A stretch of DNA of 64,000 bases, taken from IMG/VR virus record IMGVR_UViG_3300044630_004720; one strand, given 5' to 3'. Made by a program: the position numbers and the translations under genes. The notes under the pieces were generated by a model. It was given only the letters and a program-made list of their open reading frames with translations. It did no database searches and had not been told where the DNA came from. The stretch comes from a virus (Duplodnaviria > Caudoviricetes). Within the stretch, counting starts at the first letter, position 1, and each line of letters starts with the position of its first letter. Of the stretch, positions 21,869 to 64,000 are shown one piece after another.

Positions 21869-24250
21869 ATGGCGCAAATAATCAAACACAGAAGGGGTAG
21901 TGTCACCCAATTAAAAGACGTTACCGCAAGAGTCGGTGAATTGGTGATGGCAACCGGTTCTATCTCAGATATGAACGGTCCATTCCTATTTGTTGGTGAG
22001 ACTGAAGGAGTTGCGGGGGCATATAGACCCGTTTCAAAAATCTATCAGGGTTCATCAGCACCAACAATTTCATTAGGTTCACACGGTTCAGTAATTGACG
22101 GTACTCCTTTCTATGCGACAGGAAATAAATCCTTATACGTCTTAAGTAAAGACGGTAACAATAGACTCGATTTAACAGGTAACATTGAAGGAAATTTAAT
22201 CTCTGGTGTAACAATCAACAGTTTAACAGGTAGTAGAGCCACGTTTAACACATTTGTTAGTTCATCAGCATTAAATGTGTCTGGTAATACTCAAATGGGT
22301 GGAACATTGTTTGTTGATGGAGATACATCAATAAACGCCGACCTTTATATTACTGGTAACACAATTCAAACAGGTTCTATTGATTTAACGGGAAATGTAA
22401 CTTTAGGTGGTAACATCGTCATCGGTAATCAAACAACCGACTTGGTTGTTTTCCAAGGTGAGGTTAGTTCATCTATTTTACCCGAATTAAATAATGAATT
22501 CGATTTAGGTAGTGGAACACAAGCTTGGAGAAATCTACACGTTAGTGGTACTGCATATGTAGGAATTCTACAAGCGGAGTCCATTTCACTTAGTGGAATT
22601 ACCGTTTTTGAAGACCTTATTGTAAATGGTGATACATTTTTAGGAAACGATTCAGGAGACAATGTTTATATTAGCGGTTCAACATATGTTGGAACATTAA
22701 CAGAAAAAAGATTAACTGTTGCAGGTGCCGATGGATTGTTGACAGACTATAGTGGACTAACATTTGATAATGGTAATTTAAATTTATCAGGAGCACTTGA
22801 GGTTACAAATATCCAAGGAACGGGTTCATTATATTTGAAACCTGATTTAAATGATGGTAGAGATTTTAGAATATATAATACAGCACCTTCAGATATTCAT
22901 ATTAAAGGTAATGCGGCATATAGTTTCTTTGGTGATGATACCAATTACTTAAAAATAGATGACAATGCAGGAAAAACAACAATCGTTGGGGTAAACGGTG
23001 TAATTGTTAGTTCTTCATTAGATGTAACGGGTTCCGCACAATTCTCAACAACAATTAATGTTGATGGTGAAGCAACTTTATCATCTGCAACAATTGAAGA
23101 TTTAACACAAAATAGAATCGTAACAGTTGGTTCAGGAGGTTCTTTAATTGATAGTTCAGGATTTACATATAATGGTACCGTTTTCAAAATCGGTAATGGT
23201 CAATTTGAAGTTGATACTAACAATGGTAGTGTTAGAACATCAGGTTCGTTAGATGTTCATAATGTTTTAGAAGCTCATAGTACAACAGAATTAATGGGTG
23301 CTGTGGGAATGAATTCAACATTAGATGTTACAGGTTCCGCAACCTTTAAATCAACTATTGATGTTGTTGGTACTGCTAGTATGGGTCACGCAGTTGTAGA
23401 TGACTTAGTACAAGACGGAATAGTAACCGCAGGTGCTTTAGGTGAATTACAAAATAATTCAGGTTTCACATTTAACGGTTCCATCTTTAAAGTTGGTTCA
23501 GGTAATTTTGAAGTAGATACTGATGGAGACGTTAGAACATCCGGTTCATTGACGATTGGTAATGACTTAACAATAGTAGACGCTCTTAATGTCGGTGGAG
23601 TTTTAACAGTAACAGGTCAAACATTATTACAAAGTGATTTATATGTTTCAGGTAACTTACAAGTTTTAGGAAATGCAACTAGTGTAACAATTCAATCAAC
23701 AACAGTTGAATTGGATGATAATATAATCAGATTAAATGCATATTCACCATTTGAAAGATATGCGGGATTTGAAGTTATTGATTCAGGTTCAACTGGTGTT
23801 TCAGCATCATTTCTGTGGGACGGATTGAATGATTATTGGATGTTTGTTTCAAGTTCGGGTCAGTCAAGTAAATTACTTGGTACTACCGCTGGAACATATG
23901 GTTCAGAAAATAGTTTGACCGACACATATTTCCCAATCGCAACAGGACCAAACACAATTGGTGATAGTTTATTGAGATATAGCGGAACAACATTGTCTTT
24001 TAACACAAATAAATTTACAATTGATTCTGGAACCGGTGACACATTAGTAAGTGGTAACTTTACATTAAGTTATTCAGGTGGAACGGATAATGGTACTAAA
24101 ACGTCAGCAATTATGTTTAGAAATTCGAGTAATGTTGTTGGATTTGTTTCGACAACAGAAACAACAGATGTTCTTGATGGAGTTTTAGGTTATAAAAATT
24201 CAAATGGAGCGTTAGTATTCTCAACCGTAATTGACGGAGGAACATATTAA
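21869..24250 (+). CDS. Tail fibre/whisker protein with Mtd_N-like head and beta-helix repeats
   Basis: MAQIIKHRRG...GEL N-terminus, many LxVxG repeats, C-terminal IDGGTY. Confidence 0.7.
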   Translation: MAQIIKHRRGSVTQLKDVTARVGELVMATGSISDMNGPFLFVGETEGVAGAYRPVSKIYQGSSAPTISLGSHGSVIDGTPFYATGNKSLYVLSKDGNNRLDLTGNIEGNLISGVTINSLTGSRATFNTFVSSSALNVSGNTQMGGTLFVDGDTSINADLYITGNTIQTGSIDLTGNVTLGGNIVIGNQTTDLVVFQGEVSSSILPELNNEFDLGSGTQAWRNLHVSGTAYVGILQAESISLSGITVFEDLIVNGDTFLGNDSGDNVYISGSTYVGTLTEKRLTVAGADGLLTDYSGLTFDNGNLNLSGALEVTNIQGTGSLYLKPDLNDGRDFRIYNTAPSDIHIKGNAAYSFFGDDTNYLKIDDNAGKTTIVGVNGVIVSSSLDVTGSAQFSTTINVDGEATLSSATIEDLTQNRIVTVGSGGSLIDSSGFTYNGTVFKIGNGQFEVDTNNGSVRTSGSLDVHNVLEAHSTTELMGAVGMNSTLDVTGSATFKSTIDVVGTASMGHAVVDDLVQDGIVTAGALGELQNNSGFTFNGSIFKVGSGNFEVDTDGDVRTSGSLTIGNDLTIVDALNVGGVLTVTGQTLLQSDLYVSGNLQVLGNATSVTIQSTTVELDDNIIRLNAYSPFERYAGFEVIDSGSTGVSASFLWDGLNDYWMFVSSSGQSSKLLGTTAGTYGSENSLTDTYFPIATGPNTIGDSLLRYSGTTLSFNTNKFTIDSGTGDTLVSGNFTLSYSGGTDNGTKTSAIMFRNSSNVVGFVSTTETTDVLDGVLGYKNSNGALVFSTVIDGGTY

Positions 24251-24399: not shown

Positions 24400-27300
24400 A
24401 TGGCACAGATAGTAAAACTGCGTAGAAGTAGTGTATCAGGTCAAAAACCAACGAACACTAACTTACAATTAGGAGAATTAGCTCAGAACACCACGGACGG
24501 TAAGATTTTCTTAGCGAAGTCAGGTTCGAGTGGACCTTCAATCGAGGAAATAATTGTTACAAACACATCCAACACAGGTTCGATAAATCTGTTGGGTAGT
24601 GTAACTGCGTCAAATTTCACCGGTAGTTTTATTGGTGATGGTGCTTTACTATATAATGTGCCGGTATCTGGTGTTACAAATCTAACAACAATCTCAGGTT
24701 CATTAGACTCAAGATTAGATGCTTTAGAGGCTTATAGTGGTTCACAACAAGTACCAACGGCATCATATGCGTTTAGAACCACACAGGTAGATGTGTATTG
24801 TAAAAATATGTCAGGCACCCAAATAAATAAGGGTACTGTTGTTAGAATTACAGGTGCGGTGGGTGACAATCCTTTAATTAGTGTTGCTTCTCTTTTAACT
24901 GAAGGACAGTCTGCCAATACATTAGGTATCACAACTGAAAATATTCCAAATGATGGTTTTGGTTTAGTAATAACTGAAGGTATTTTAACAGGAGTTAATA
25001 CCAATGGTATGACTGCGGGTCAATTACTATTTTTAGGTGAGAATGGAACATTTACAACATCATATCCTGTTGCTCCAAATCACGGAGTTAGACTGGGTGA
25101 AGTATTAAGAGTTCAACAACAACAAGGTTCAATTTATGTTCGTATAGATAACGGTTCGGAATTAGGTGAATCACACGACGTTCTTGATTCAACAACAAGC
25201 TCATCATATGGTGACTTATTAGTTAAAAGTGGTAGTGTGTGGGTTAATAGTAGAAGTTTAAATGGTAATTATGCCGTTACAGGTAGTTTAACAATTACAC
25301 AGAACTTAACAGTTTTAGGTTCATCTTCACTTGTATATGTTACCTCGTCACAACTTGCGGTAAGTGCATCTTTTATAAGTGTAAACGTTTTTGAACCAGC
25401 CGAAAGATTTGGTGGGTTAAAAGTTTATGATAGTGGCAGTTCAAATGCCACAGCATCTTTAGCTTGGGATAGTTTACATAATCATTGGGTATATCAAAAC
25501 TCAACTGACGACACATACTCTGGTGGTATGTTACTATCTGGACCAAGAAACACCGGTTCTTTGGGCGACGAGCCTGGTTTAATAAGTGGTAGAATTGTAA
25601 AGTCAATTGGTGGTGACCATATTGATGTGTCTATCATATCTGAAACCGGAACAACTATTACAGTTGGTGGTGATTTGGTTGCTAATTCAATAACAGGTGC
25701 TTTTGATTTTTATGGTTTGGTAAACAGACCTACTTTAGTATCAGGTTCATCACAAATTGAAATTACAGGGACAACCGGATATTCAGATTTTAGTTCTTCT
25801 ATAAAAGATAGAATAGATGTTGTCACTGGTTCAATTACTGACCTATCATCTTCTGTTAAAGATAGAATTGACATCGTTACAGGGTCAATAACAGATTTAA
25901 GTTCGTCAGTTAAGGACCGAATTGATATTGTCACCGGTTCAATTACAGATTTAAGTTCATCAGTTAAAGATAGAATTGATGTAGTTACAGGCTCAATTAC
26001 TGACCTGTCATCTTCCGTTAAAGATAGGATTGATGTTGTTACCGGTTCAATCACTGACCTATCATCTTCTGTTAAAGATAGAATAGATACTGTCACTGGT
26101 TCAATCACCGATTTAAGCTCTTCTGTTAAAGATAGAATAGATGTTGTCACCGGTTCTGTTGATTCTTTAAATTTATTTACGAGTTCATATACCACAAATT
26201 CATTCACAGGTTCATTTATTGGTGATGGTTCAGGTTTATACAATATTCCGGCAAGTGGTGTTACAGGATTACAATTAGATAAAATTATTAATGGTAATGC
26301 AAGTGCTTCAATTAATAATAGTGGATTTTATGTAAACAGAGATGTTTTTGTTGACGGTACAATTACCGCAAAAGAAATTCATATTGATTATGTAACATCT
26401 TCAGTTCTATATCAATCAGGTTCCACAAAATTTGGTGATTCAAATGACGACACACACCAATTCACAGGTTCCGTTAAAATTTCAGGTTCATTACAATCCG
26501 ATTCTATTACAGGTTCATTCACGGGTTCATTTGCCGGAAACGCTTCAGGGTTAGTAAATGTTCCTTTTCATATTTCAGGTTCCGATGTTGATGGTGGAAC
26601 ATATGATAAACAATTTTCAAAATTACAATTTGACGATAGTACAGGATTAAATGTTAGTGAATCAGTCGCAGGAACAGCATTCATATCGATTGGGTCACAC
26701 TTTAGAGATATTTTTGTTTCAGGTTCGGATATGTTAAGAGCAACTGGTTCAGATGCTTTTGAAATTATACCTGAAGGAGGTATTGAAGTTACAACTTCAA
26801 TCACCGACACCAATTCAAATGGTTATGTAAAAGAATTAAGATTAAGTACAACAACGTTATCATCATCTCTTGATACAAGAATTGATAACTTATCAAGTAG
26901 TGTAGTTTACCAATCAGAAACATCGTCAATGACGGTGTTGAGCTCATCATACGCATTAACTGCATCATTTGCATTAAACGCAGGTGGAGGAAGTGAAGGT
27001 AGAACTTATATACATACACAATCATCAGCATCAACAACTTGGACGGTTACACATAACTTAGGTGAACAATATCCGGCAATTGTGGTATTTGATTCGTCAG
27101 ATAACGTAATTGTTCCGGGTACAATAACAGCAGTAAACGATACTAGCTTCACAGTAACTTTCCCAAGTGCACAAACAGGTAAAGTGAGTGCAACTGTTGG
27201 TGGTGGATTACCATTTGTTAGTGCAAGTTTTGTTGATTATGTTTTAGCTGTTAATAATGATATTCCATATTGGAAAGGAGGTGTTATATCAGGTTCGGCT

Positions 27301-30300
27301 CAAATCATATTAACAGGAACAACGGGATATTCTACGTTTAGTTCTTCAGTTGCAACAACAACATTAAATATAAAAAATAGGGTAGATTCTATTGAAGTAA
27401 AAACAGGTAGTTATGCAACAACAGGTTCTAATTTATTTATTGGTACACAAACACTTAGTGGTTCTATATTACCATCTGTTGATAATTTATATGATTTAGG
27501 TAGTTCAACACATCAATGGAGAGATGTTTACATTTCTTCTGGGTCTCTTTATATCGATGGAACAAAAGTTATTAGTAGCACAACGCAAGAACTACAAATC
27601 ACAACTGATTCAGGTCAATCAATTAAAATATTAGAAAACGGAACAGATTCAATTATTTTACAAACCGCTGATGGTGATGTTGAATTAAAGTCTAGCGGCG
27701 ATGGTGATATATTATTAGACCCAACTAATGGTAAGATAATGTTAAAAGGTCCTGTTGAAATATTAAACGGACAAAAAATACAATCATCAGTTGGAGGTAC
27801 ACCTGTTGTTTTTGCAAACGATATTGTAGTTTCTGGTTCTATAGAATTAACGGGTACAATTGATGGAATTGATTTAACATCATTTAGTTCATCGGCTAAT
27901 ACAAGATTAACAAATTTAGAAAGTAGCGGAGGTAGTTTAAATTCATTTACGGCGTCAGCAAACACAAGATTAGGTGCGTTAGAAACACAAAGCGGTAGTA
28001 TAAATTCATTTACCGCTTCTGCAAATACGAGATTAGGGGACTTAGAAACAGAAAGCGGTAGCGTAAGATTTGATTTAAATTCTCATATCTCAAGTGCAAA
28101 CGGAAGATTAACCTCAATTGAAACATCGACAGGTTCATTAAATTCATTTAGTTCTTCGACCTCGACAAGATTATCATCAATTGAAATATCGACTGGCTCG
28201 TTAAACTCATTTACTTCCTCAACTGCCGGAAGTTTAATTGCAATTCAAACAAGTACATCGAGTTTGAATTCATTTACTTCCTCAACTGCCGAAAGTTTAA
28301 TTGCAATTCAAACAAGTACATCAAGTTTAAATAGCTTTACTGCATCAACAAATACAAGATTGGGAGCGTTAGAAACTTCTACATCGAGCCTTAATACATT
28401 TAGTTCTTCTACAAATGGTAGATTAACATCAATTGAAACATCTACAGCTTCATTAAATTCATTTACATCTTCTACTGAGGGAAGTTTAATCGCAATTCAA
28501 ACAAGCACAGCAAGTTTAAATAGTTTTAGTTCTTCTACTAATACAAGATTAGGGGCATTAGAAACAGAAAGCGGTTCTATTAGAACGGCATTCAATAGCT
28601 ACACCTCATCTAACGATAGTACAAATACAACTCAGAATAATAGATTAACGGCGTTAGAAACTTCTACATCAAGCCTTAATACATTTAGTTCATCTACTAA
28701 TACAAGATTAGGGTCGTTAGAAACAGAAAGCGGTTCTATTAGGACTGCATTTAATAGTTATACATCATCCAATGATGGAACAAATACAACTCAGAATAAT
28801 AGGCTAACGGCATTAGAAACTTCCACATCAAGTTTAAATAGTTTTAGTTCTTCTACAAATAGTAAACTAACATCTATTGAGACAAGTACAGGTAGTTTAA
28901 ACACATTTAGTTCTTCTACTAATACAAGAGTAGGAGCATTAGAAACTGAAAGTGGAAGCATTAGAACAGCATTTAATAATTATACATCATCCAATGATGG
29001 AACAAATACAACACAAAATAGTAGATTAACATCATTAGAAGGGAAGACAGGTAGTTATGCTACAACAGGTTCCAACGTGTTCATTGGTGACCAAACAATA
29101 ACAGGGTCTTTGTATATTTCACAAAACCTTATAATTGCGGGTTCATCTTCAATACAACACATCACATCTTCTCAACTTAATATTGGTGATAACATTATCA
29201 CGGTAAATGCTCAAAACCCAAGTATTAGATTTGGTGGTCTTGCGGTTATTGATAGTGGTTCTTCACCACAAGTATCCGGTTCAATTTTATTTGATTCAAC
29301 AAATGACCAATGGATATTTGTTCATCAAAATCAAAGTACCATTACCTCTTCTGTTTTATTAATGGGTCCTGAGACCTATAACAATTTAGGTGGAGAATCT
29401 TACTTAACACAAAATAGAATTCCAAAAGGAAGTGGTATTGAACATTTAAATGATAGTAATATTAGTGACACCGGAACAAAGGTTTCAATCAATTCAAATA
29501 CAGAAATCACCGGTACATTTGTTGCAACAGGAACGGCATTAGTTTCGGGTTCTGCTCAGATTTCATTCAATGGTATAACTGATAAACCAACATTAGTTTC
29601 AGGTTCGTCTCAAATTACTTTCTTAAGTATTAGTAACATACCATCAGGACTTGTTTCAGGTTCTTCACAAGTATTAAACGGAAGTGGAGTATGGTCGGGT
29701 TCAGCACAATTACCATCAGGAACCGTGTCAGGTTCTTCACAAGTATTAAACGGAAGTGGAGTATGGTCGGGTTCAGCACAATTACCTGCGGGTGTTGTGT
29801 CTGGCTCAAGTCAAGTTTTAAATGGTAGTGGAGTATGGTCAGGCTCAGCACAATTACCATCAGGTGTTGTGTCAGGTTCAAGTCAAATTACGTATTCATC
29901 TATTAGTGGTATTCCTACAGGTATTGTTTCAGGCTCATCACAAGTATCTTTCGGTGGTATTAGTGGAGTACCTTCAGGATTAGTTTCAGGTTCATCACAA
30001 GTGGCATTTGGTTCGTTAAGTGGTTTACCTTCAGGTATCATATCAGGTTCATCACAAATATCATTTGGTAGTATTAGTGGAGTACCTTCAGGTTTAGTGT
30101 CAGGTAGTTCACAAGTGGCGTTTGGTTCATTAAGTGGATTACCGTCTGGTTTAGTATCTGGTTCTTCACAAATATCATTTGGTTCAATATCGAACATTCC
30201 TTCGGGGTTGGTATCAGGTTCATCACAAATATCATTTGGTAGTATATCAGGACTACCACCAGGATTAGTGTCAGGCTCTTCACAAATTTCAATCGCATCG

Positions 30301-31929
30301 ACAAGTGGATTCGGTACCTATATAAATCAAGCGCTTTTAACAACATCTACACCCACATTCTCAACAGTATCTGCAACAACATTTACGGGAGCATTAAGTG
30401 GTAATGCAACAACCGCAAGTTCAACTCAACGTCTTGATGATGTGAACAACTATACTTGGTCACAATCTTCACTACCACAAAGTTATTCAGAAGGGATGCA
30501 GTTAAGCTTTGTTGGACCAAGTGCAGGTGAGGGGAGTTGGCAGAATTATGGTACGGTAATAAATGCAAGAACATATTCTGGTGGAGGTGGTAGTTTGCAA
30601 ATGTATGTACCATATGGGCCAAGTAACGGCGGAGCAGCACTACAGGTTCGTTTTGGTGATTATAGTGCTCCATCTTACGGTAATCAATGGACAGCTTGGA
30701 AGACGTTGTTACAATCTGACAACTACAACTCTTACGCTCCCACCCTAACAGGTGGTGGTGCAAGTGGAACTTGGGGTATTAATATCACTGGTAATGCGGC
30801 AACGGCCACTTCGGCCACCGATTCAACAAAACTTCCACTAGCAGGTGGAACGTTAACAGGTGATTTAAGATTTAATAATGCGGGATATGGTAGAATTGCG
30901 TTTACCGATAACTATCACGGTTTAATTCTTAGAGGAAATCCAAATAACGCCGCAGGTGACATAACAGCAGGTGATGTAACTTCATTAGTACAACATAGTG
31001 GTGATTTTAGGTTTTACAGAACAAACGGAAGTATAAATGAAGTTTATTTCCAAGTTAATGCAACAGCACCATATTGGAGAGGAAATGTAATATATCACGC
31101 GGGTAACATCCCAACTTGGAATCAAAATACTAGTGGTACCGCCGGTTCAATATCGGGATTTAATAACCCCACAACATCGGCAACAGCTAACACAATCGCC
31201 TATAGAGATAGTGGTGGTGATTTATATGCGAGATATATGTTTGCCGTTCATTTTAATCAGTCTGGAGGAAATAGTGAAAATCCAACAATTGGACAAATTT
31301 GGACACAAAACACCACGGATAACTATTGTAGAAAATCAACACCTGCACACTTTATTAGTCAATTGGGATTAATAACAACATCCAATATTGGTTCACAATC
31401 TGTTAGTTACGCAAATAGTGCGGGTAGTGCACCTAACGGAACTAATCAAAATTCGGTCTACAATGTAACACCTGGTGAAGGTAATGGATTGAAATTTTGG
31501 TCTGAGGACAGTTATAAAATTAGTATGGGTGTTAGTAGTGTGTACCAATATGGGACCGTTACGGATTATTCAATTAAAACCCAAATGAATTCGGGAGACG
31601 CCGGAAGAGGATTTACTTGGGGAAGAATTGGTGTGGTTCCAATTGCATCATTAAACGCAACGTCAGGTAATATGCAACTTGCGGGGTCATTAACAACAGG
31701 TGGAAGTATATTACCATTAAGTAATAACTCTGTTAATTTAGGTTCAGCATCTTTAGGTTGGGCAAACGTTTATACAAACGACTTACATTTAAGTAATATG
31801 AATAAACCTGAAGGTAATGATATTGATGGTACAAATGGTAACTGGACAATTCAAGAAGGAGCAGAAAATCTGTATATTATCAATAATAATAACGGAAAGA
31901 AATATAAAATATCGTTAGAAGAAATATAA
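24400..31929 (+). CDS. Giant (2509 aa) Ser/Thr/Gly-rich tail fibre protein
   Basis: Mtd_N-like start (I.KLRRS...P....L..GELA.N..DGK), three repeat arrays, TWTVTHNLG domain, C-terminal YTNDLHLSN..DGTNGNWTIQEG..GKKYK domain typical of phage fibres. Confidence 0.8.
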   Translation: MAQIVKLRRSSVSGQKPTNTNLQLGELAQNTTDGKIFLAKSGSSGPSIEEIIVTNTSNTGSINLLGSVTASNFTGSFIGDGALLYNVPVSGVTNLTTISGSLDSRLDALEAYSGSQQVPTASYAFRTTQVDVYCKNMSGTQINKGTVVRITGAVGDNPLISVASLLTEGQSANTLGITTENIPNDGFGLVITEGILTGVNTNGMTAGQLLFLGENGTFTTSYPVAPNHGVRLGEVLRVQQQQGSIYVRIDNGSELGESHDVLDSTTSSSYGDLLVKSGSVWVNSRSLNGNYAVTGSLTITQNLTVLGSSSLVYVTSSQLAVSASFISVNVFEPAERFGGLKVYDSGSSNATASLAWDSLHNHWVYQNSTDDTYSGGMLLSGPRNTGSLGDEPGLISGRIVKSIGGDHIDVSIISETGTTITVGGDLVANSITGAFDFYGLVNRPTLVSGSSQIEITGTTGYSDFSSSIKDRIDVVTGSITDLSSSVKDRIDIVTGSITDLSSSVKDRIDIVTGSITDLSSSVKDRIDVVTGSITDLSSSVKDRIDVVTGSITDLSSSVKDRIDTVTGSITDLSSSVKDRIDVVTGSVDSLNLFTSSYTTNSFTGSFIGDGSGLYNIPASGVTGLQLDKIINGNASASINNSGFYVNRDVFVDGTITAKEIHIDYVTSSVLYQSGSTKFGDSNDDTHQFTGSVKISGSLQSDSITGSFTGSFAGNASGLVNVPFHISGSDVDGGTYDKQFSKLQFDDSTGLNVSESVAGTAFISIGSHFRDIFVSGSDMLRATGSDAFEIIPEGGIEVTTSITDTNSNGYVKELRLSTTTLSSSLDTRIDNLSSSVVYQSETSSMTVLSSSYALTASFALNAGGGSEGRTYIHTQSSASTTWTVTHNLGEQYPAIVVFDSSDNVIVPGTITAVNDTSFTVTFPSAQTGKVSATVGGGLPFVSASFVDYVLAVNNDIPYWKGGVISGSAQIILTGTTGYSTFSSSVATTTLNIKNRVDSIEVKTGSYATTGSNLFIGTQTLSGSILPSVDNLYDLGSSTHQWRDVYISSGSLYIDGTKVISSTTQELQITTDSGQSIKILENGTDSIILQTADGDVELKSSGDGDILLDPTNGKIMLKGPVEILNGQKIQSSVGGTPVVFANDIVVSGSIELTGTIDGIDLTSFSSSANTRLTNLESSGGSLNSFTASANTRLGALETQSGSINSFTASANTRLGDLETESGSVRFDLNSHISSANGRLTSIETSTGSLNSFSSSTSTRLSSIEISTGSLNSFTSSTAGSLIAIQTSTSSLNSFTSSTAESLIAIQTSTSSLNSFTASTNTRLGALETSTSSLNTFSSSTNGRLTSIETSTASLNSFTSSTEGSLIAIQTSTASLNSFSSSTNTRLGALETESGSIRTAFNSYTSSNDSTNTTQNNRLTALETSTSSLNTFSSSTNTRLGSLETESGSIRTAFNSYTSSNDGTNTTQNNRLTALETSTSSLNSFSSSTNSKLTSIETSTGSLNTFSSSTNTRVGALETESGSIRTAFNNYTSSNDGTNTTQNSRLTSLEGKTGSYATTGSNVFIGDQTITGSLYISQNLIIAGSSSIQHITSSQLNIGDNIITVNAQNPSIRFGGLAVIDSGSSPQVSGSILFDSTNDQWIFVHQNQSTITSSVLLMGPETYNNLGGESYLTQNRIPKGSGIEHLNDSNISDTGTKVSINSNTEITGTFVATGTALVSGSAQISFNGITDKPTLVSGSSQITFLSISNIPSGLVSGSSQVLNGSGVWSGSAQLPSGTVSGSSQVLNGSGVWSGSAQLPAGVVSGSSQVLNGSGVWSGSAQLPSGVVSGSSQITYSSISGIPTGIVSGSSQVSFGGISGVPSGLVSGSSQVAFGSLSGLPSGIISGSSQISFGSISGVPSGLVSGSSQVAFGSLSGLPSGLVSGSSQISFGSISNIPSGLVSGSSQISFGSISGLPPGLVSGSSQISIASTSGFGTYINQALLTTSTPTFSTVSATTFTGALSGNATTASSTQRLDDVNNYTWSQSSLPQSYSEGMQLSFVGPSAGEGSWQNYGTVINARTYSGGGGSLQMYVPYGPSNGGAALQVRFGDYSAPSYGNQWTAWKTLLQSDNYNSYAPTLTGGGASGTWGINITGNAATATSATDSTKLPLAGGTLTGDLRFNNAGYGRIAFTDNYHGLILRGNPNNAAGDITAGDVTSLVQHSGDFRFYRTNGSINEVYFQVNATAPYWRGNVIYHAGNIPTWNQNTSGTAGSISGFNNPTTSATANTIAYRDSGGDLYARYMFAVHFNQSGGNSENPTIGQIWTQNTTDNYCRKSTPAHFISQLGLITTSNIGSQSVSYANSAGSAPNGTNQNSVYNVTPGEGNGLKFWSEDSYKISMGVSSVYQYGTVTDYSIKTQMNSGDAGRGFTWGRIGVVPIASLNATSGNMQLAGSLTTGGSILPLSNNSVNLGSASLGWANVYTNDLHLSNMNKPEGNDIDGTNGNWTIQEGAENLYIINNNNGKKYKISLEEI
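25780..26157 (+). repeat. 7 x 54 bp (18 aa ITDLSSSVKDRIDVVTGS) coding tandem repeat
   Basis: Nearly identical peptides with varied synonymous codons. Confidence 0.9.
27871..29052 (+). repeat. Array of ~21 aa SLNSFSSSTNTRLGALETSTS coiled-coil repeats, with a 53 aa higher-order unit x3
   Basis: Read from the translation. Confidence 0.85.
29539..30303 (+). repeat. Array of 19 aa GLVSGSSQISFGSISGLPS repeats plus 3 x 24 aa VSGSSQVLNGSGVWSGSAQLP repeats
   Basis: Translation; includes a 59 bp exact DNA duplication at 29656-29714 and 29728-29786. Confidence 0.85.
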
Positions 31930-60436: not shown

Positions 60437-60874
60437 ATGATATACTGGTTCACAGGACAACCCGGCGCAGGTAAAACTACCCTATCAAAACATCTGATTT
60501 CGTATTTAGAAAATACCGAAAAAGTGATTCACATTGATGGGGATGACCTAAGATTAATTTTTGAAAACAAAGACTTTTCAGAAACAGGCAGAAGAAAAAA
60601 CATAGAAAGAGCACAAGACATTGCTCGTTTTATGAATGAAAAGGGATACACAGTTGTGGTGTCATTAGTTTCTCCATATAAAGATATGAGAGATAACTTT
60701 AAAACTCACAATTCGGTGATTGAATTTTATGTACACACAACTGAAACAAGAGGAAGAGAATCGTTTCACGTGTCAAATTACGAACCCCCAACAGAAAATT
60801 TTATTGATATTAATACCACTAACAAAGATGAAAGAGAATCTTTCATCGAATTAATTAAATTTATAGATTTATGA
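60437..60874 (+). CDS. cysC: Adenylyl-sulfate (APS) kinase
   Basis: WFTGQPGAGKTT, IDGDDLR, GR..NI, VSLVSPY, YEPP. Confidence 0.85.
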   Translation: MIYWFTGQPGAGKTTLSKHLISYLENTEKVIHIDGDDLRLIFENKDFSETGRRKNIERAQDIARFMNEKGYTVVVSLVSPYKDMRDNFKTHNSVIEFYVHTTETRGRESFHVSNYEPPTENFIDINTTNKDERESFIELIKFIDL

Positions 60875-61254
60875 AAAAGTATGCATTGTACATCGGAAGA
60901 TGGCAAAATTGGCACGCAGGACACGAATGGTTAATTAGCCAACAATTAGATAAAGGGAAAAATGTATGGGTGGCTATTAGGGATGTTGAAGTTGATGAGA
61001 ACAACCCTAAAACCGCACAAGAAGTATTCCAAGAACTAATCAAAGTACCATTTTTTAATGAGAATTTTGATAAAATACTTCTCTCAATTATACCTGATAT
61101 CGAATCCGTAAACTATGGTAGAGGTGTAGGTTATGAGGTGATTTATCATAATCCCCCATCGGATATTGAAAGTATCAGCGGAACCAAAATAAGACAAGGT
61201 TATATGGACAGCAACGGAGACGTTATTGTCTATTCAGTAGATGATGTGAAATGA
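60871..61254 (+). CDS. HxGH nucleotidyltransferase (cytidyltransferase-like)
   Basis: IGRWQNWHAGH, NP, ISGTKIR. Confidence 0.8.
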   Translation: MKKYALYIGRWQNWHAGHEWLISQQLDKGKNVWVAIRDVEVDENNPKTAQEVFQELIKVPFFNENFDKILLSIIPDIESVNYGRGVGYEVIYHNPPSDIESISGTKIRQGYMDSNGDVIVYSVDDVK

Positions 61255-61472
61255 TAGTAGAACGTAAAAGACACATAGCCAAAACAATATCATATAGAGT
61301 AGTATCAACCTTAATCGGGTTTGGTATAATGTGGTGGTTGAGTGGGGACCTTAAAGTAGGGGCGGCGTTCGGTGTCGCGGAACTTGTCTATAAACCAATC
61401 CAATATTACATACACGAAAGAGTTTGGTATAGGTGGATAAAATACGGTTTAAAAGATAAAAATAAGTTATAA
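61251..61472 (+). CDS. DUF2061 membrane protein
   Basis: R.IAKTISYRV..T, YY.HERVW. Confidence 0.75.
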   Translation: MIVERKRHIAKTISYRVVSTLIGFGIMWWLSGDLKVGAAFGVAELVYKPIQYYIHERVWYRWIKYGLKDKNKL

Positions 61473-62033
61473 ATGGATAAATTATATACGGTTGAAAATT
61501 TTCTTAGTGAAAATGAATGTTTGAGTATCTTAACAAAATACAAATCCGAATTAAAACTAAAACCCGCTGAAGTGGCGGTAAAGGAGGGCAATACATTTAG
61601 TGATAAAAGGAAATCATCCATTGCATTTATTGACGGTATAGAAACGATAGATGAGAGAATTAAGAACACATTAAAGAATCTTATACAAATCAAAGGATTT
61701 GAAGTAACAGGTTTAGGTCCATACCAATTTACGGAATATAAAGTCGGTGAGTATTATGATTGGCACACCGACTCATCATCAATTGGAGATGAATATAAGG
61801 ACAGATTTTGCTCTATTGTCATTCAGATTAATGATGAATATGATGGTGGATATCTTCAATTAAAAGATGAGAATGGAAATAATATTCAATTGGATAAGGG
61901 TATTGGTACAATGTATATATTTTATTCAAATATAGTACATAGAGTGGTTCCGGTCACTAATGGAGTTAGGTATTCTTTAGTTAATTGGGTATCTCTTAGA
62001 AAATTAGAAAATTTTAAAAAAACACTATTGTAA
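61473..62033 (+). CDS. 2OG-Fe(II) oxygenase, prolyl 4-hydroxylase-like
   Basis: QFTEY..G.YY.WHTD, S.V.Q.ND.Y.GG.L, H.V.PVT.G.RYSLV.W. Confidence 0.88.
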   Translation: MDKLYTVENFLSENECLSILTKYKSELKLKPAEVAVKEGNTFSDKRKSSIAFIDGIETIDERIKNTLKNLIQIKGFEVTGLGPYQFTEYKVGEYYDWHTDSSSIGDEYKDRFCSIVIQINDEYDGGYLQLKDENGNNIQLDKGIGTMYIFYSNIVHRVVPVTNGVRYSLVNWVSLRKLENFKKTLL

Positions 62034-62067
62034 CATACACCCATCCCATTGATAAAAAAAATACCCA

Positions 62068-62075
62068 TATTTATA
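62068..62075 (+). promoter_or_regulatory. TATTTATA promoter-like motif
   Basis: Intergenic, 26 nt upstream of ATG 62102. Confidence 0.5.
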
Positions 62076-62101
62076 ATAGAATAAAAAAATAATAAGACAA
62101 T

Positions 62102-63553
62102 ATGAAATCACTATTAATCGCGACGGACTTAATAAAAACAGTTTCAGGAGATGTAAAAGTACTGGAAACAAACACAAACGCTCTTGTAAATTATAAATTT
62201 GACGATAATATACATTATTTGGATAATCTTACTGCGTTTATCCAATCCAACCAATTCCAAACGGTACATTGTATATATCCAATTTACTCTTCTAATTTTA
62301 CCAAAAAGCTAAAAGAAATATGTGAATCATTAAACATATCTGTCGTTCAGCACCCTACGGATACCGGTTCAGTTACCGTTCCATACATTGAAGATTCAGA
62401 AGATATTTTGATTATTAGAATTTCATATGATACGACTGCGATAATTGATGAGGAGTACTGTAAAGACAAATTCAAATTACAGAGCATTATTAATAACAAA
62501 ACCTATGGTTCTAAAACATTTATACCAAACGAAATAGATAATTTTGCGTCAATATCAGATTTTCAATATTCAGACGATGTACCAAATTTCATAGTAAAAA
62601 AGAGATTTCCTAATTATGATAGAGAAATTTATCCCAAATTATATAAAGTACAAAACTTGGCAGAATTAAACGAATTAAAGACTACAATAGAATCCGATTG
62701 TTATTTACAAGAATTCCACCATTCAGAATTAGTACAGGGTAAAAGATGTGTTATAAGAAGTTTAGACCTTCTTTATGGTAGTAATTTAGATGTGTTAAAT
62801 ATTTGTAGTTTTTATAAGACAAACCAATTGGCTGAGAATCAATGGGAAAACACATATAATGAGGAGGGGTTGTTGGATAAAAAAGATAGACCAAAATATA
62901 TAACAAACACAAACGAAAATCATAATTCTTTTTGGCCTTACGTTTATGATGTTGACCAAGAATTGGTTATGGGTGATGGAGGTAGAAAACCATTTAATGA
63001 ATTACAAATTGGTAATAGTGTTAAAACTGTACATATTGATGGGTTAGATTTGGATGAAAGAGCATATAAAATGTTTGAGTGGGTCGGAAACTATAATGAT
63101 TTTGTATCTAATATTTATCTTAAAGAAACCCAGGTAACATCTATATTTACATCTCCCCCAACATCACAATTATTTTTAAGAGTTACTTTAGATGACGGAG
63201 TAACAGAATGGGATGATTTGAATGAAACACCCCTATTAGTTAAGGTTGGTGAAACAATAATTTTTAAGGAGTTTGGAGACCTTGAAATTGGAGATAGTAT
63301 TGTAACTTTTAACTTTGAAACTAATTTACCTGAAATTAAAAACGTACAATCTATTGATGTTGTCTTTAAAGATGAACAAGTGTTAGGTTCTATTGATGTT
63401 GAACCAGAAGATGTCTATATGCCGTTGGTTTCACAATATATTACGATTATTCAACACAACCAATGTAATAAAGGTTGTAAAGCAACAGGATGTGCGGATG
63501 CATATTATTGTGGAGATTGTACACCTGTTTTTTGTGGACCACCCCCAAAATAA
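62102..63553 (+). CDS. Circularly permuted ATP-grasp ligase + Hint domain + 30 aa six-Cys C-terminal peptide
   Basis: N-terminal D...KVLETNTN, later FIVKK, YLQEF, VIRS; Hint-like ELVMGDG.RK.FNELQIG..V ... L.IGD.I ... IDVE..D.Y..IIQHN; tail QCNKGCKATGCADAYYCGDCTPVFCGPPPK. Confidence 0.7.
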   Translation: MKSLLIATDLIKTVSGDVKVLETNTNALVNYKFDDNIHYLDNLTAFIQSNQFQTVHCIYPIYSSNFTKKLKEICESLNISVVQHPTDTGSVTVPYIEDSEDILIIRISYDTTAIIDEEYCKDKFKLQSIINNKTYGSKTFIPNEIDNFASISDFQYSDDVPNFIVKKRFPNYDREIYPKLYKVQNLAELNELKTTIESDCYLQEFHHSELVQGKRCVIRSLDLLYGSNLDVLNICSFYKTNQLAENQWENTYNEEGLLDKKDRPKYITNTNENHNSFWPYVYDVDQELVMGDGGRKPFNELQIGNSVKTVHIDGLDLDERAYKMFEWVGNYNDFVSNIYLKETQVTSIFTSPPTSQLFLRVTLDDGVTEWDDLNETPLLVKVGETIIFKEFGDLEIGDSIVTFNFETNLPEIKNVQSIDVVFKDEQVLGSIDVEPEDVYMPLVSQYITIIQHNQCNKGCKATGCADAYYCGDCTPVFCGPPPK

Positions 63554-63589
63554 ATTTAAAAATAAAAATAAAAATAAAAATTATATATT

Positions 63590-63700
63590 ATGTTAATACA
63601 AACTATATTTGCACCTACGGAACAAGGAACTAAAACAGGAGTTGAAACCACAATACAAGATATGGTTTTAACAATTTTATCCGATGTCCAATCTTCTTAA
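63590..63700 (+). CDS. 36 aa Thr-rich peptide (not in track)
   Basis: MLIQTIFAPTEQGTKTGVETTIQDMVLTILSDVQSS; ATG after an A-rich leader; fills the gap. Confidence 0.5.
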   Translation: MLIQTIFAPTEQGTKTGVETTIQDMVLTILSDVQSS

Positions 63701-63721
63701 TTAATTGTTTAATTCAAACCG

Positions 63722-64000
63722 ATGCCAATAGATATACGAGAAATTACGGTAGCTTGGTGGGATTCTTATTTTGCGGATGATAATCAAAAAAAATTAGCTA
63801 AAGAAAGGTTAAGTATTTGTGAAAGTTGTCCATCATTAGAACAAAAATTTAAAAAAATAAGAAAAATAACTATTAGTGTTTGCGGAGAATGTGGATGCCC
63901 AATTACCAAAAAAGTATTTTCAAATAAGTTTAATGCGTGTCCTTTGGGTAAATGGAAAGAAGTAGATGAATCACAACCAGAATTTTTTAAAATTAAAAAG
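63722..64000 (+). CDS. Cys-rich Zn-binding protein, DUF6171-like, 3' truncated (not in track)
   Basis: R..ICESC..CGECGCPI..K...CPLGKW; frame open to window end. Confidence 0.7.
   Translation, partial: MPIDIREITVAWWDSYFADDNQKKLAKERLSICESCPSLEQKFKKIRKITISVCGECGCPITKKVFSNKFNACPLGKWKEVDESQPEFFKIKK

Follow-up and report, generated by a model that had tools for sequence, protein, structure and literature searches.

Modifying enzymes that are fused or dedicated to a ribosomal peptide are known from borosin-type fusions (OphMA) and graspetides, and the latter use ATP-grasp ligases. Hint autopeptidases located just ahead of variable C-terminal modules are known from polymorphic toxins (PMC3482391). 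In inteins the N-terminal acyl shift and the transesterification depend on position 1, block B and a +1 nucleophile, and an off-pathway reaction in which Asn cyclisation cleaves the C-terminal junction while the N-terminal steps are bypassed is well established for them too (PMC4031507). YgiC and YjfC, finally, are peptide-spermidine ligases according to Pederick et al. 2023, as cited in PMC12568646, and the RefSeq product name gives the same activity. Here we analyze a gene in which modules of these kinds are combined. It is found in a 64,000-nucleotide stretch of tailed-phage DNA (IMG/VR record IMGVR_UViG_3300044630_004720), hereafter called the window, and encodes a protein of 483 amino acids (aa) built as follows:

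62102..63553, + strand: family gene, an intact open reading frame (ORF) of 483 aa for a three-part protein
62102..62917, + strand: GspS/YgiC-type (permuted) ATP-grasp carboxylate-amine ligase domain, aa 1-272 (predicted fold and conserved residues)
62942..63460, + strand: degenerate Hint domain, aa 281-453, ending in H452-N453, without Cys1 (V281) and block-B His (T376) (fold and profile)
63461..63550, + strand: hypervariable six-Cys tail of 30 residues, aa 454-483, Cys spacing 3-4-5-2-4, Lys at the end

We are nearly certain of this three-part architecture and its folds. Each module belongs to a known superfamily, and the combination appears to be undescribed: searches of full-text literature, including jumbo-phage and ATP-grasp family surveys, yielded no fusion of a GspS-like ligase, a cleavage-only Hint and a Cys-rich peptide. 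An earlier note on this DNA had placed the ORF here, divided its product into a permuted ATP-grasp, a Hint and a six-Cys peptide, and cited no description of the architecture. The ORF is present as claimed, folds and profile comparison support the layout, and our searches returned no previous description, all homologues being named 'hypothetical protein'.

Compared with the described systems, the Hint of the window protein shares with inteins, bacterial intein-like (BIL) domains and Hedgehog proteins the fold (TMt 0.8), the His-Asn on the last strand and profile homology, but it has no Cys, Ser or Thr at position 1, no block-B TxxH and no +1 nucleophile. The ligase domain resembles GspS, YgiC/YjfC and eukaryotic glutathione (GSH) synthetase in fold and apparently in motif order (D...E-x-N first; Lys, hinge and Arg later), whereas it shows no detectable membership of their sequence families, is far smaller (~270 aa), lacks the pre-ATP-grasp and lid elaborations and is fused to a Hint. 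As with the pre-toxin Hints of polymorphic toxins, the Hint is directly followed by a C-terminal module of high variability, which it presumably releases. The present family, however, resides in phages, has an enzyme domain in place of the trafficking domain, carries tiny Cys-rich peptides rather than toxin domains and is not accompanied by a variable immunity gene. With borosins and graspetides the protein shares, by analogy, the idea of pairing an enzyme with a peptide, although release would here be autocatalytic instead of relying on a separate protease, and the graspetide ligase 7mgv is only a distant fold match to the window ligase (VIA Z 4.7). Cross-linking of the tail in the manner of graspetides was rejected on that distance and on the finding that 53 of the 160 tails contain no Asp or Glu, which, together with Ser, Thr or Lys, such side-chain macrolactone or lactam links need.

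A word-indexed search retrieved 137 homologues of the 483-aa protein and an exhaustive HMMER search 230 homologue clusters at 50% identity; the family is represented by 280 loci in IMG/VR. All homologues are from uncultured tailed phages, and the Atlas clusters of the family are 96-100% Uroviricota. No match was obtained with tblastn against 50,697 GenBank phage records (INPHARED), so that no cultured phage is found to carry the gene, and the family was absent from a scan of 185,579 bacterial and archaeal species, one genome each. None of the databases searched holds an annotation for the family, and the whole protein and its pieces gave nothing usable against Pfam, PHROGs and PDB sequences. 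Because no profile library recognises the protein, we made use of relatives and structure. The start Met1 is invariant in the homologue alignment. Taken together this is a large phage-restricted family whose conserved core consists of the ligase and a cleavage-only Hint, and whose payload varies.

A full-protein AlphaFold2 (AF2) model based on 38 diverse relatives has a predicted local distance difference test (pLDDT) of 84, except for residues 456-483 at ~32. Residues ~276-453 adopt a Hint fold (Foldseek probability 1.0; TMt 0.80-0.81 to 6tyy, 1at0 and 2in0), with the Hedgehog autoprocessing domain, the RecA mini-intein, other mini-inteins and BIL domains as structural matches. Some longer relatives contain canonical Hints (Pfam E 2e-13 in P0095), and with hhalign the internal Hint-like region aligns to these at 97.7% (E 2e-12). 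In this alignment the terminal His-Asn is paired with His-Asn, Cys1 with V281, the block-B Thr with L373 and the block-B His with T376 of the NETP stretch. The block-F (F:13) His of canonical Hints corresponds to the near-invariant D437, and E434 and D437 of block F are invariant or near-invariant throughout the family. The family alignment shows no conserved nucleophile in the column of Cys1, while N453 is invariant. Of the 236 relatives that are at least 380 aa long, with identities of 25-90%, 225 retain the C-terminal His-Asn. A +1 nucleophile is missing too: this position is Gln in the window and mostly Ala, Leu, Tyr, Pro or Val in relatives (A 64, L 26, Y 20, P 19, V 17, and Q 8 among the remainder), with Cys at +2 in 127 members. 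The fold and profile results thus agree with the earlier reading of the segment as Hint-like, lacking the N-terminal Cys/Ser and the block-B His but retaining the terminal His-Asn. The N-terminal Gln to which that reading drew attention is not conserved.

Without Cys1, the block-B His and a +1 nucleophile, the internal Hint cannot splice, and N-terminal cleavage is excluded; with the N-terminal nucleophile and the block-B His lost, the domain cannot form an N-terminal thioester. We also considered a class 3 intein, but the block-F Cys of the WCT motif is not present and residues 276-453 hold no conserved Cys. The only Hint chemistry left would be, at most, C-terminal cleavage by cyclisation of the terminal Asn, aided by the penultimate His. 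Given that inteins are known to perform this off-pathway reaction without the earlier steps, we infer a cut between N453 and Q454. From the conservation pattern such cleavage after His-Asn seems slightly favoured over its absence.

The N-terminal domain contains the motifs LETNTN (21-26), VKK (165-167), LQEF (202-205) and VIRS (217-220), and the family alignment shows D9, E22, N24, K166, R168, Q203, E204 and R219 as invariant or near-invariant columns. The ligase motifs quoted in the earlier note are hence real and lie on conserved positions. When modelled alone, aa 1-272 reach a pLDDT of 89.5. The top fold matches of this model consist of YgiC, YjfC, glutathionylspermidine and trypanothione synthetases, eukaryotic (homo)glutathione synthetases, the amide ligase Cp1B and 3n6x, and nothing else. 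Foldseek returns YgiC, GspS and eukaryotic GSH synthetases at E 3e-7, and VIA-align superimposes 199 residues on YgiC (Z 10.1, root-mean-square deviation 3.9). The ten best VIA matches (Z 10.1 to 8.1) are all of the GspS/GSH-synthetase type and align from residue 1, whereas the alignment of classical ATP-grasps (RimK, LysX/ArgX, TTLL) begins only at ~residue 52, which fits a permuted order. These results are in line with the permuted type that had been proposed for the N-terminus. Structure matches in AFDB and Atlas are likewise to the GSP_synth family.

A YgiC profile alignment pairs D9...E22-x-N24 with D102...E115-x-N117; it is weak (E 0.02, 2% probability), and its motif range (102-117) is consistent with independent structural ranges. 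Pfam (GSP_synth/CP_ATPgrasp) gave no match to the domain even at E 10, and the family profile of the N-domain found chance matches only among PDB sequences. In the models the domain is thus folded like the ATP-dependent carboxylate-amine ligases of which glutathionylspermidine synthetase and YgiC are examples, with invariant putative Mg/ATP residues. The nearest structural match outside the family is AFDB A0A7C5WAC9 (residues 205-491, TM 0.70 by query), the C-terminal half of a 537-aa protein automatically named 'Piwi domain-containing protein', possibly a cellular relative of the compact ligase that sits in a different fusion.

Most members continue for 21-70 residues after the His-Asn. Across the family the tails have a Cys content of 18.3%, against 0.5% in the remaining protein; the tail of the window has a calculated mass of 3098.6 Da in reduced form. 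The number of cysteines is even in 166 of 167 short tails: 6 in 117 members, 8 in 38, 10 in seven and 12 in three, with one tail having 5. The commonest spacings are 3-4-5-2-4, as in the window, and 4-6-5-2-4. Outside the cysteines the tails diverge rapidly: non-Cys tail identity is 0.21 where the ligase and the Hint have 0.56 and 0.59, and it is 0.63 where these have 0.84 and 0.86. The 30-residue tail with six cysteines is found where it had been located (63461-63550), and the check put forward earlier, a hypervariable peptide with a retained Cys pattern, turned out as expected. An Atlas feature search with the tail alone gave no usable match. The even Cys numbers argue for pairing in disulfides, even though the counts come from related, non-independent sequences. 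We consider it probable from this pattern that the tail cysteines form disulfides, presumably after lysis or with a helper.

The end of the tail appears to be defined as well. Lys is the final residue in 101 of the 163 short tails and falls among the last four in another 31. About 20 relatives extend past the tail by a module of ~73 residues with the signature of the Peptidase_S74 intramolecular chaperone (weak Pfam matches, E 1e-3 to 6e-3), and in 14 of the 20 S74-bearing relatives its conserved Ser-Asp directly follows a Lys. The segments ahead of the module have an even Cys count in all 20 cases. The best PDB match of the extension is 3gud, the released neck-appendage chaperone of GA-1 (E 0.2), and both begin with Ser-Asp. 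If the module removed itself, the chain left behind would stop at Lys, just as the short forms do by their coding sequence. The ~20 relatives thus share with endosialidases, tail fibres and neck appendages a module that starts at Ser-Asp after the tail; the window protein differs in that it has no such chaperone (Ser-Asp...Lys...Asn-Ile) and its chain stops at K483.

Another 24 relatives have one to three canonical Hints downstream of the degenerate one. The flanks of Hints within tails (...GGSQ|Hint|KKQF) resemble the ends of Hint-less tails (...GGGGQK); reading like an uninterrupted tail, they suggest BIL- or intein-like insertions. In P0254 a Hint is located exactly between the His-Asn and a six-Cys tail. 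As a separate observation, two or three canonical Hints follow in tandem right after the degenerate Hint in P0247, P0212, P0245, P0251, P0263, P0264, P0267 and P0268. These proteins lack a Cys peptide and finish with a short stub that contains Lys; so many self-processing modules in a row are unusual. Judging from the relatives, the exact C-terminus of the peptide appears to matter: short forms stop at Lys, and longer forms place an S74 chaperone or a Hint at that point.

We tentatively propose, with a little less than an even chance of being right, that the protein is a self-processing enzyme-peptide fusion of large tailed phages. His-assisted cyclisation of Asn453 would cut the chain between N453 and Q454 and free a peptide of ~3.1 kDa, whose six cysteines would pair as three disulfides. 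More speculatively, the fused ligase would act on the C-terminal alpha-carboxylate of this peptide and join it to an amine, which might be a polyamine, the peptide's own N-terminus or a target protein. A zinc-ribbon-like protein that co-occurs with the gene (see below) might help to fold, oxidise or bind the Cys-rich tail. The C-terminal carboxylate is proposed as the substrate because about a third of the tails offer no other carboxyl group, so that it is the only one always available, and because the nearest structural relatives ligate peptide C-termini to polyamines. Even so, action of the ligase on this carboxylate, as read from the sequences, would be rather unlikely. Very unlikely is the complete route, in which Asn cyclisation by the Hint exposes the N-terminus of a disulfide-knotted peptide and the ligase, by activating the exactly trimmed C-terminal carboxylate, turns this peptide into a backbone-cyclised (cyclotide-like) product or one coupled to a polyamine, a virion protein or a host protein.

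The gene neighbourhood was compared over 91 loci, comprising 11 exact look-ups and 80 of the 280 IMG/VR loci. In the window the following neighbours are relevant:

61473..62033, + strand: 2-oxoglutarate (2OG)-Fe(II) oxygenase like prolyl 4-hydroxylase (P4H), upstream neighbour (Pfam 2OG-FeII_Oxy_3, E 1e-14)
63590..63700, + strand: small ORF of 36 aa directly downstream, in the same position in seven distant loci
63722..64000, + strand: start of a zinc-ribbon-like Cys protein of ~92-98 aa (weak DUF6171), running off the window end

The zinc-ribbon-like protein (~92 aa) is encoded within 1.5 kb of the family gene in 76 of the 91 loci, upstream in 63 and downstream, as in the window, in 13. Its consensus, C-x2-C...C-x2-C-G-C-P...C-P-x2-K-W, has five conserved Cys. 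The gene is present in 76 of 85 loci with a Cys tail and in none of six tail-less loci, these six representing three lineages; it is also absent from L003, where the region after the His-Asn comprises Hints only. Adjacency across a changed gene order, together with this co-occurrence, suggests that the zinc-ribbon protein is functionally tied to the Cys tail, with few independent tail-less lineages to judge from. A homologue of the P4H-like oxygenase occurs in 80 of the 91 loci and within 1.5 kb in 61. Counterparts of the small ORF, 33-49 aa long, are located in L001 (9466-9579), L002 (9937-10086), L003 (2838-2975), L006 (5405-5530), L008 (4918-5019) and L010 (5390-5497). They resemble one another weakly, having in common a ..I-T-x-x-E-K-T.. 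stretch, an amphipathic end and, in many cases, a His-Ser/Thr terminus, and some records do not list the ORF among their genes. In the window four tandem copies of AAAAAT (63557-63580) lie between the family gene's stop codon and the small ORF, and L008 shows a similar A-rich spacer after its family gene.

Further upstream, an adenosine 5'-phosphosulfate (APS) kinase, a cytidylyltransferase-like protein of ~120 aa (a small nucleotidyltransferase) and DUF2061 are encoded in 27-38 of the 91 loci; the APS kinase/nucleotidyltransferase region is located at 60437-61472 in the window and is found in L001, L006 and L010 as well. In 63 loci a gene of 190-245 aa with an N-terminus resembling the loop that binds 3'-phosphoadenosine 5'-phosphosulfate (PAPS) lies downstream of the family gene. 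Its sulfotransferase similarity is sub-threshold only (two PAPS-loop matches, E 0.03 and 0.08) and serves as a lead only. The upstream APS kinase/nucleotidyltransferase and the downstream PAPS-loop-like gene suggest a conserved sulfation module.

In the window a long block of co-directional genes, with many for sugar and other modification enzymes (UDP-glucose dehydrogenase, short-chain dehydrogenase/reductase epimerases, a carbamoyltransferase, APS kinase, 2OG oxygenases and a radical SAM enzyme), has the family gene as its final complete member. PHROG matches to an SbcC-like nuclease, a structural protein and a DNA methyltransferase identify the DNA as that of a tailed phage. The window was found in at least 16 lake or freshwater metagenome runs, one per study, a count that excludes two possible source samples. 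Ahead of the family gene a consensus scan found one candidate expression signal:

62049..62077, + strand: candidate promoter, sigma70-like TTGATA-17-TATAAT (11 of 12 consensus positions)

This candidate overlaps a copy of TATTTATA at 62068-62075. The motif lies 12-66 nt upstream of several + strand ORFs (starts 6791, 15977, 21869, 24400 and others), these copies of the motif being located at 6770, 15957, 19234, 21839, 24326 and 62068 (+). The earlier note had described TATTTATA as the motif found before the virion genes. It does precede ORFs that include the putative structural genes at 21869 and 24400, but it is not over-represented in the window (10 occurrences against 12.5 expected), and as a statistically enriched motif it was rejected on this overall count, while its positions ahead of ORFs are suggestive. 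The ORF at 24400-31929 (+) is a single one of 2509 aa with TATTTATA ahead of it. In position the motif resembles the T4 late promoter TATAAATA, again without overall enrichment. Two studies contributed three metatranscriptome libraries with short, near-identical contigs. These map to 62436-62735 within the ORF, to 61990-62123, where the upstream gene ends and the putative promoter and the ORF's initial 22 nt follow, and to 63516-63774, which takes in the last bases of the ORF and the downstream genes. Since such libraries can hold DNA, these contigs neither prove transcription nor map its start.

Several observations weigh against the self-processing fusion. For the ATP-grasp call the evidence is the fold (Z ~10, TM ~0.45-0.58) together with a weakly scoring motif alignment, and no hidden Markov model matched. 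The tail is undocked in the AF2 model (pLDDT ~32). Disulfide formation is unlikely in the bacterial cytoplasm, and the CxxC found in 141 of the 160 tails would fit metal binding too. Elsewhere, S74 chaperones are known as parts of trimeric virion fibres. Three lineages in which just 5-7 residues follow the His-Asn (KPKQPKK, AKQLW, RCAYK) nonetheless keep the ligase, the His-Asn and the same gene neighbourhood, so the main role of the ligase may not concern the Cys peptide. In some relatives one to three extra Hints or unrelated C-terminal regions of 150-540 aa replace the Cys tail, and Pfam assigned no family to ten non-Cys payloads. Homologues without any C-terminal peptide had been named beforehand as evidence against the proposal. 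The three short-tail lineages come close to this, but the Cys peptide remains by far the commonest payload, though not a universal one. A predicted complex of aa 1-453, ATP and Mg with the 30-residue tail scored 0.00, which neither supports nor opposes the proposal.

As a rival explanation, the product might be a virion fibre or decoration protein. Its variable C-terminal module would then be a trimeric host-binding tip, folded via the S74 chaperone where one is present, and the conserved N-terminal part an anchor or a virion-borne enzyme. Cleavage at His-Asn would either be absent or hand over the tip, which the ligase would then attach covalently to a virion protein. Receptor-binding proteins typically combine a constant N-terminus and a hypervariable C-terminus in this way, and S74 intramolecular chaperones are known in tailspikes, fibres and neck appendages, as the Pfam matches and 3gud recall. 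In one relative (L004) the family gene lies ~1 kb upstream of a tail sheath gene, TATTTATA also precedes the two putative structural genes, and BFVD contains phage Hint proteins fused to adhesion-type FN3 or PASTA domains. On the other hand, an invariant, catalytic-looking ATP-grasp would be odd for a fibre anchor, most members including that of the window lack the chaperone, a tip of 27-35 residues is very small for a receptor-binding domain, and no PHROG structural family is similar to the protein. As no cultured phage carries the gene, no virion proteomics exists. A fibre role is possible, although rather doubtful. Alternatively, the ligase might act on a small molecule or another protein of the surrounding modification island (PAPS supply, sulfotransferase-like genes, P4H-like oxygenases, SET and glycan genes), the Hint being a silent scaffold and the Cys tail an attached metal-binding (Zn or Fe-S) or regulatory appendix. 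This would agree with nearest folds that are small-molecule or peptide-polyamine ligases, with the retained neighbourhood of tail-less members, with the recurrence of APS kinase, 2OG oxygenases and sulfotransferase-like genes, and with the CxxC motifs. It would leave hard to explain, without Asn cyclisation, why the His-Asn is conserved at the exact end of an otherwise catalytically stripped Hint. Furthermore, Cys counts of 6, 8, 10 and 12 suit pairing more than Cys4 metal sites, and hypervariability between the cysteines is atypical of a cofactor site. We regard this explanation as unlikely.

The layout of a constant N-terminus, a Hint and a variable C-terminus is that of polymorphic toxins (PMC3482391), and small conserved genes adjoin the family gene. 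In that case the Hint would free a variable toxic or antimicrobial peptide directed against competitors or the host, with the small neighbours as immunity or helper proteins. However, Pfam detects no secretion or trafficking domain, none of the tails matches a toxin family, and the family is absent from the bacterial and archaeal species scanned. A conserved zinc-ribbon neighbour beside hypervariable tails is moreover the opposite of what cognate immunity proteins show. An effector of this type is highly improbable.

Should the proposed self-processing fusion be correct, the family would represent a natural Hint that has been reduced to a dedicated module for C-terminal self-cleavage and wired to an amide ligase, and its disulfide-rich mini-peptides would form a large and rapidly evolving group encoded by phages. 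Making a modified knotted peptide by the one-gene (plus helper) route would follow a maturation logic not seen before for ribosomal peptides, and would be a new way to make, and possibly to ligate or cyclise, them. It would also supply compact parts for protein engineering, combining traceless C-terminal release with ATP-driven ligation. Even without cleavage, an invariant and uncharacterised phage-restricted family of GspS-like ligases is of interest. For the large aquatic phages themselves, the finding would, if true, offer a handle on the targets of their modification islands, with their PAPS supply, P4H-like oxygenases, SET and sulfotransferase-like genes.

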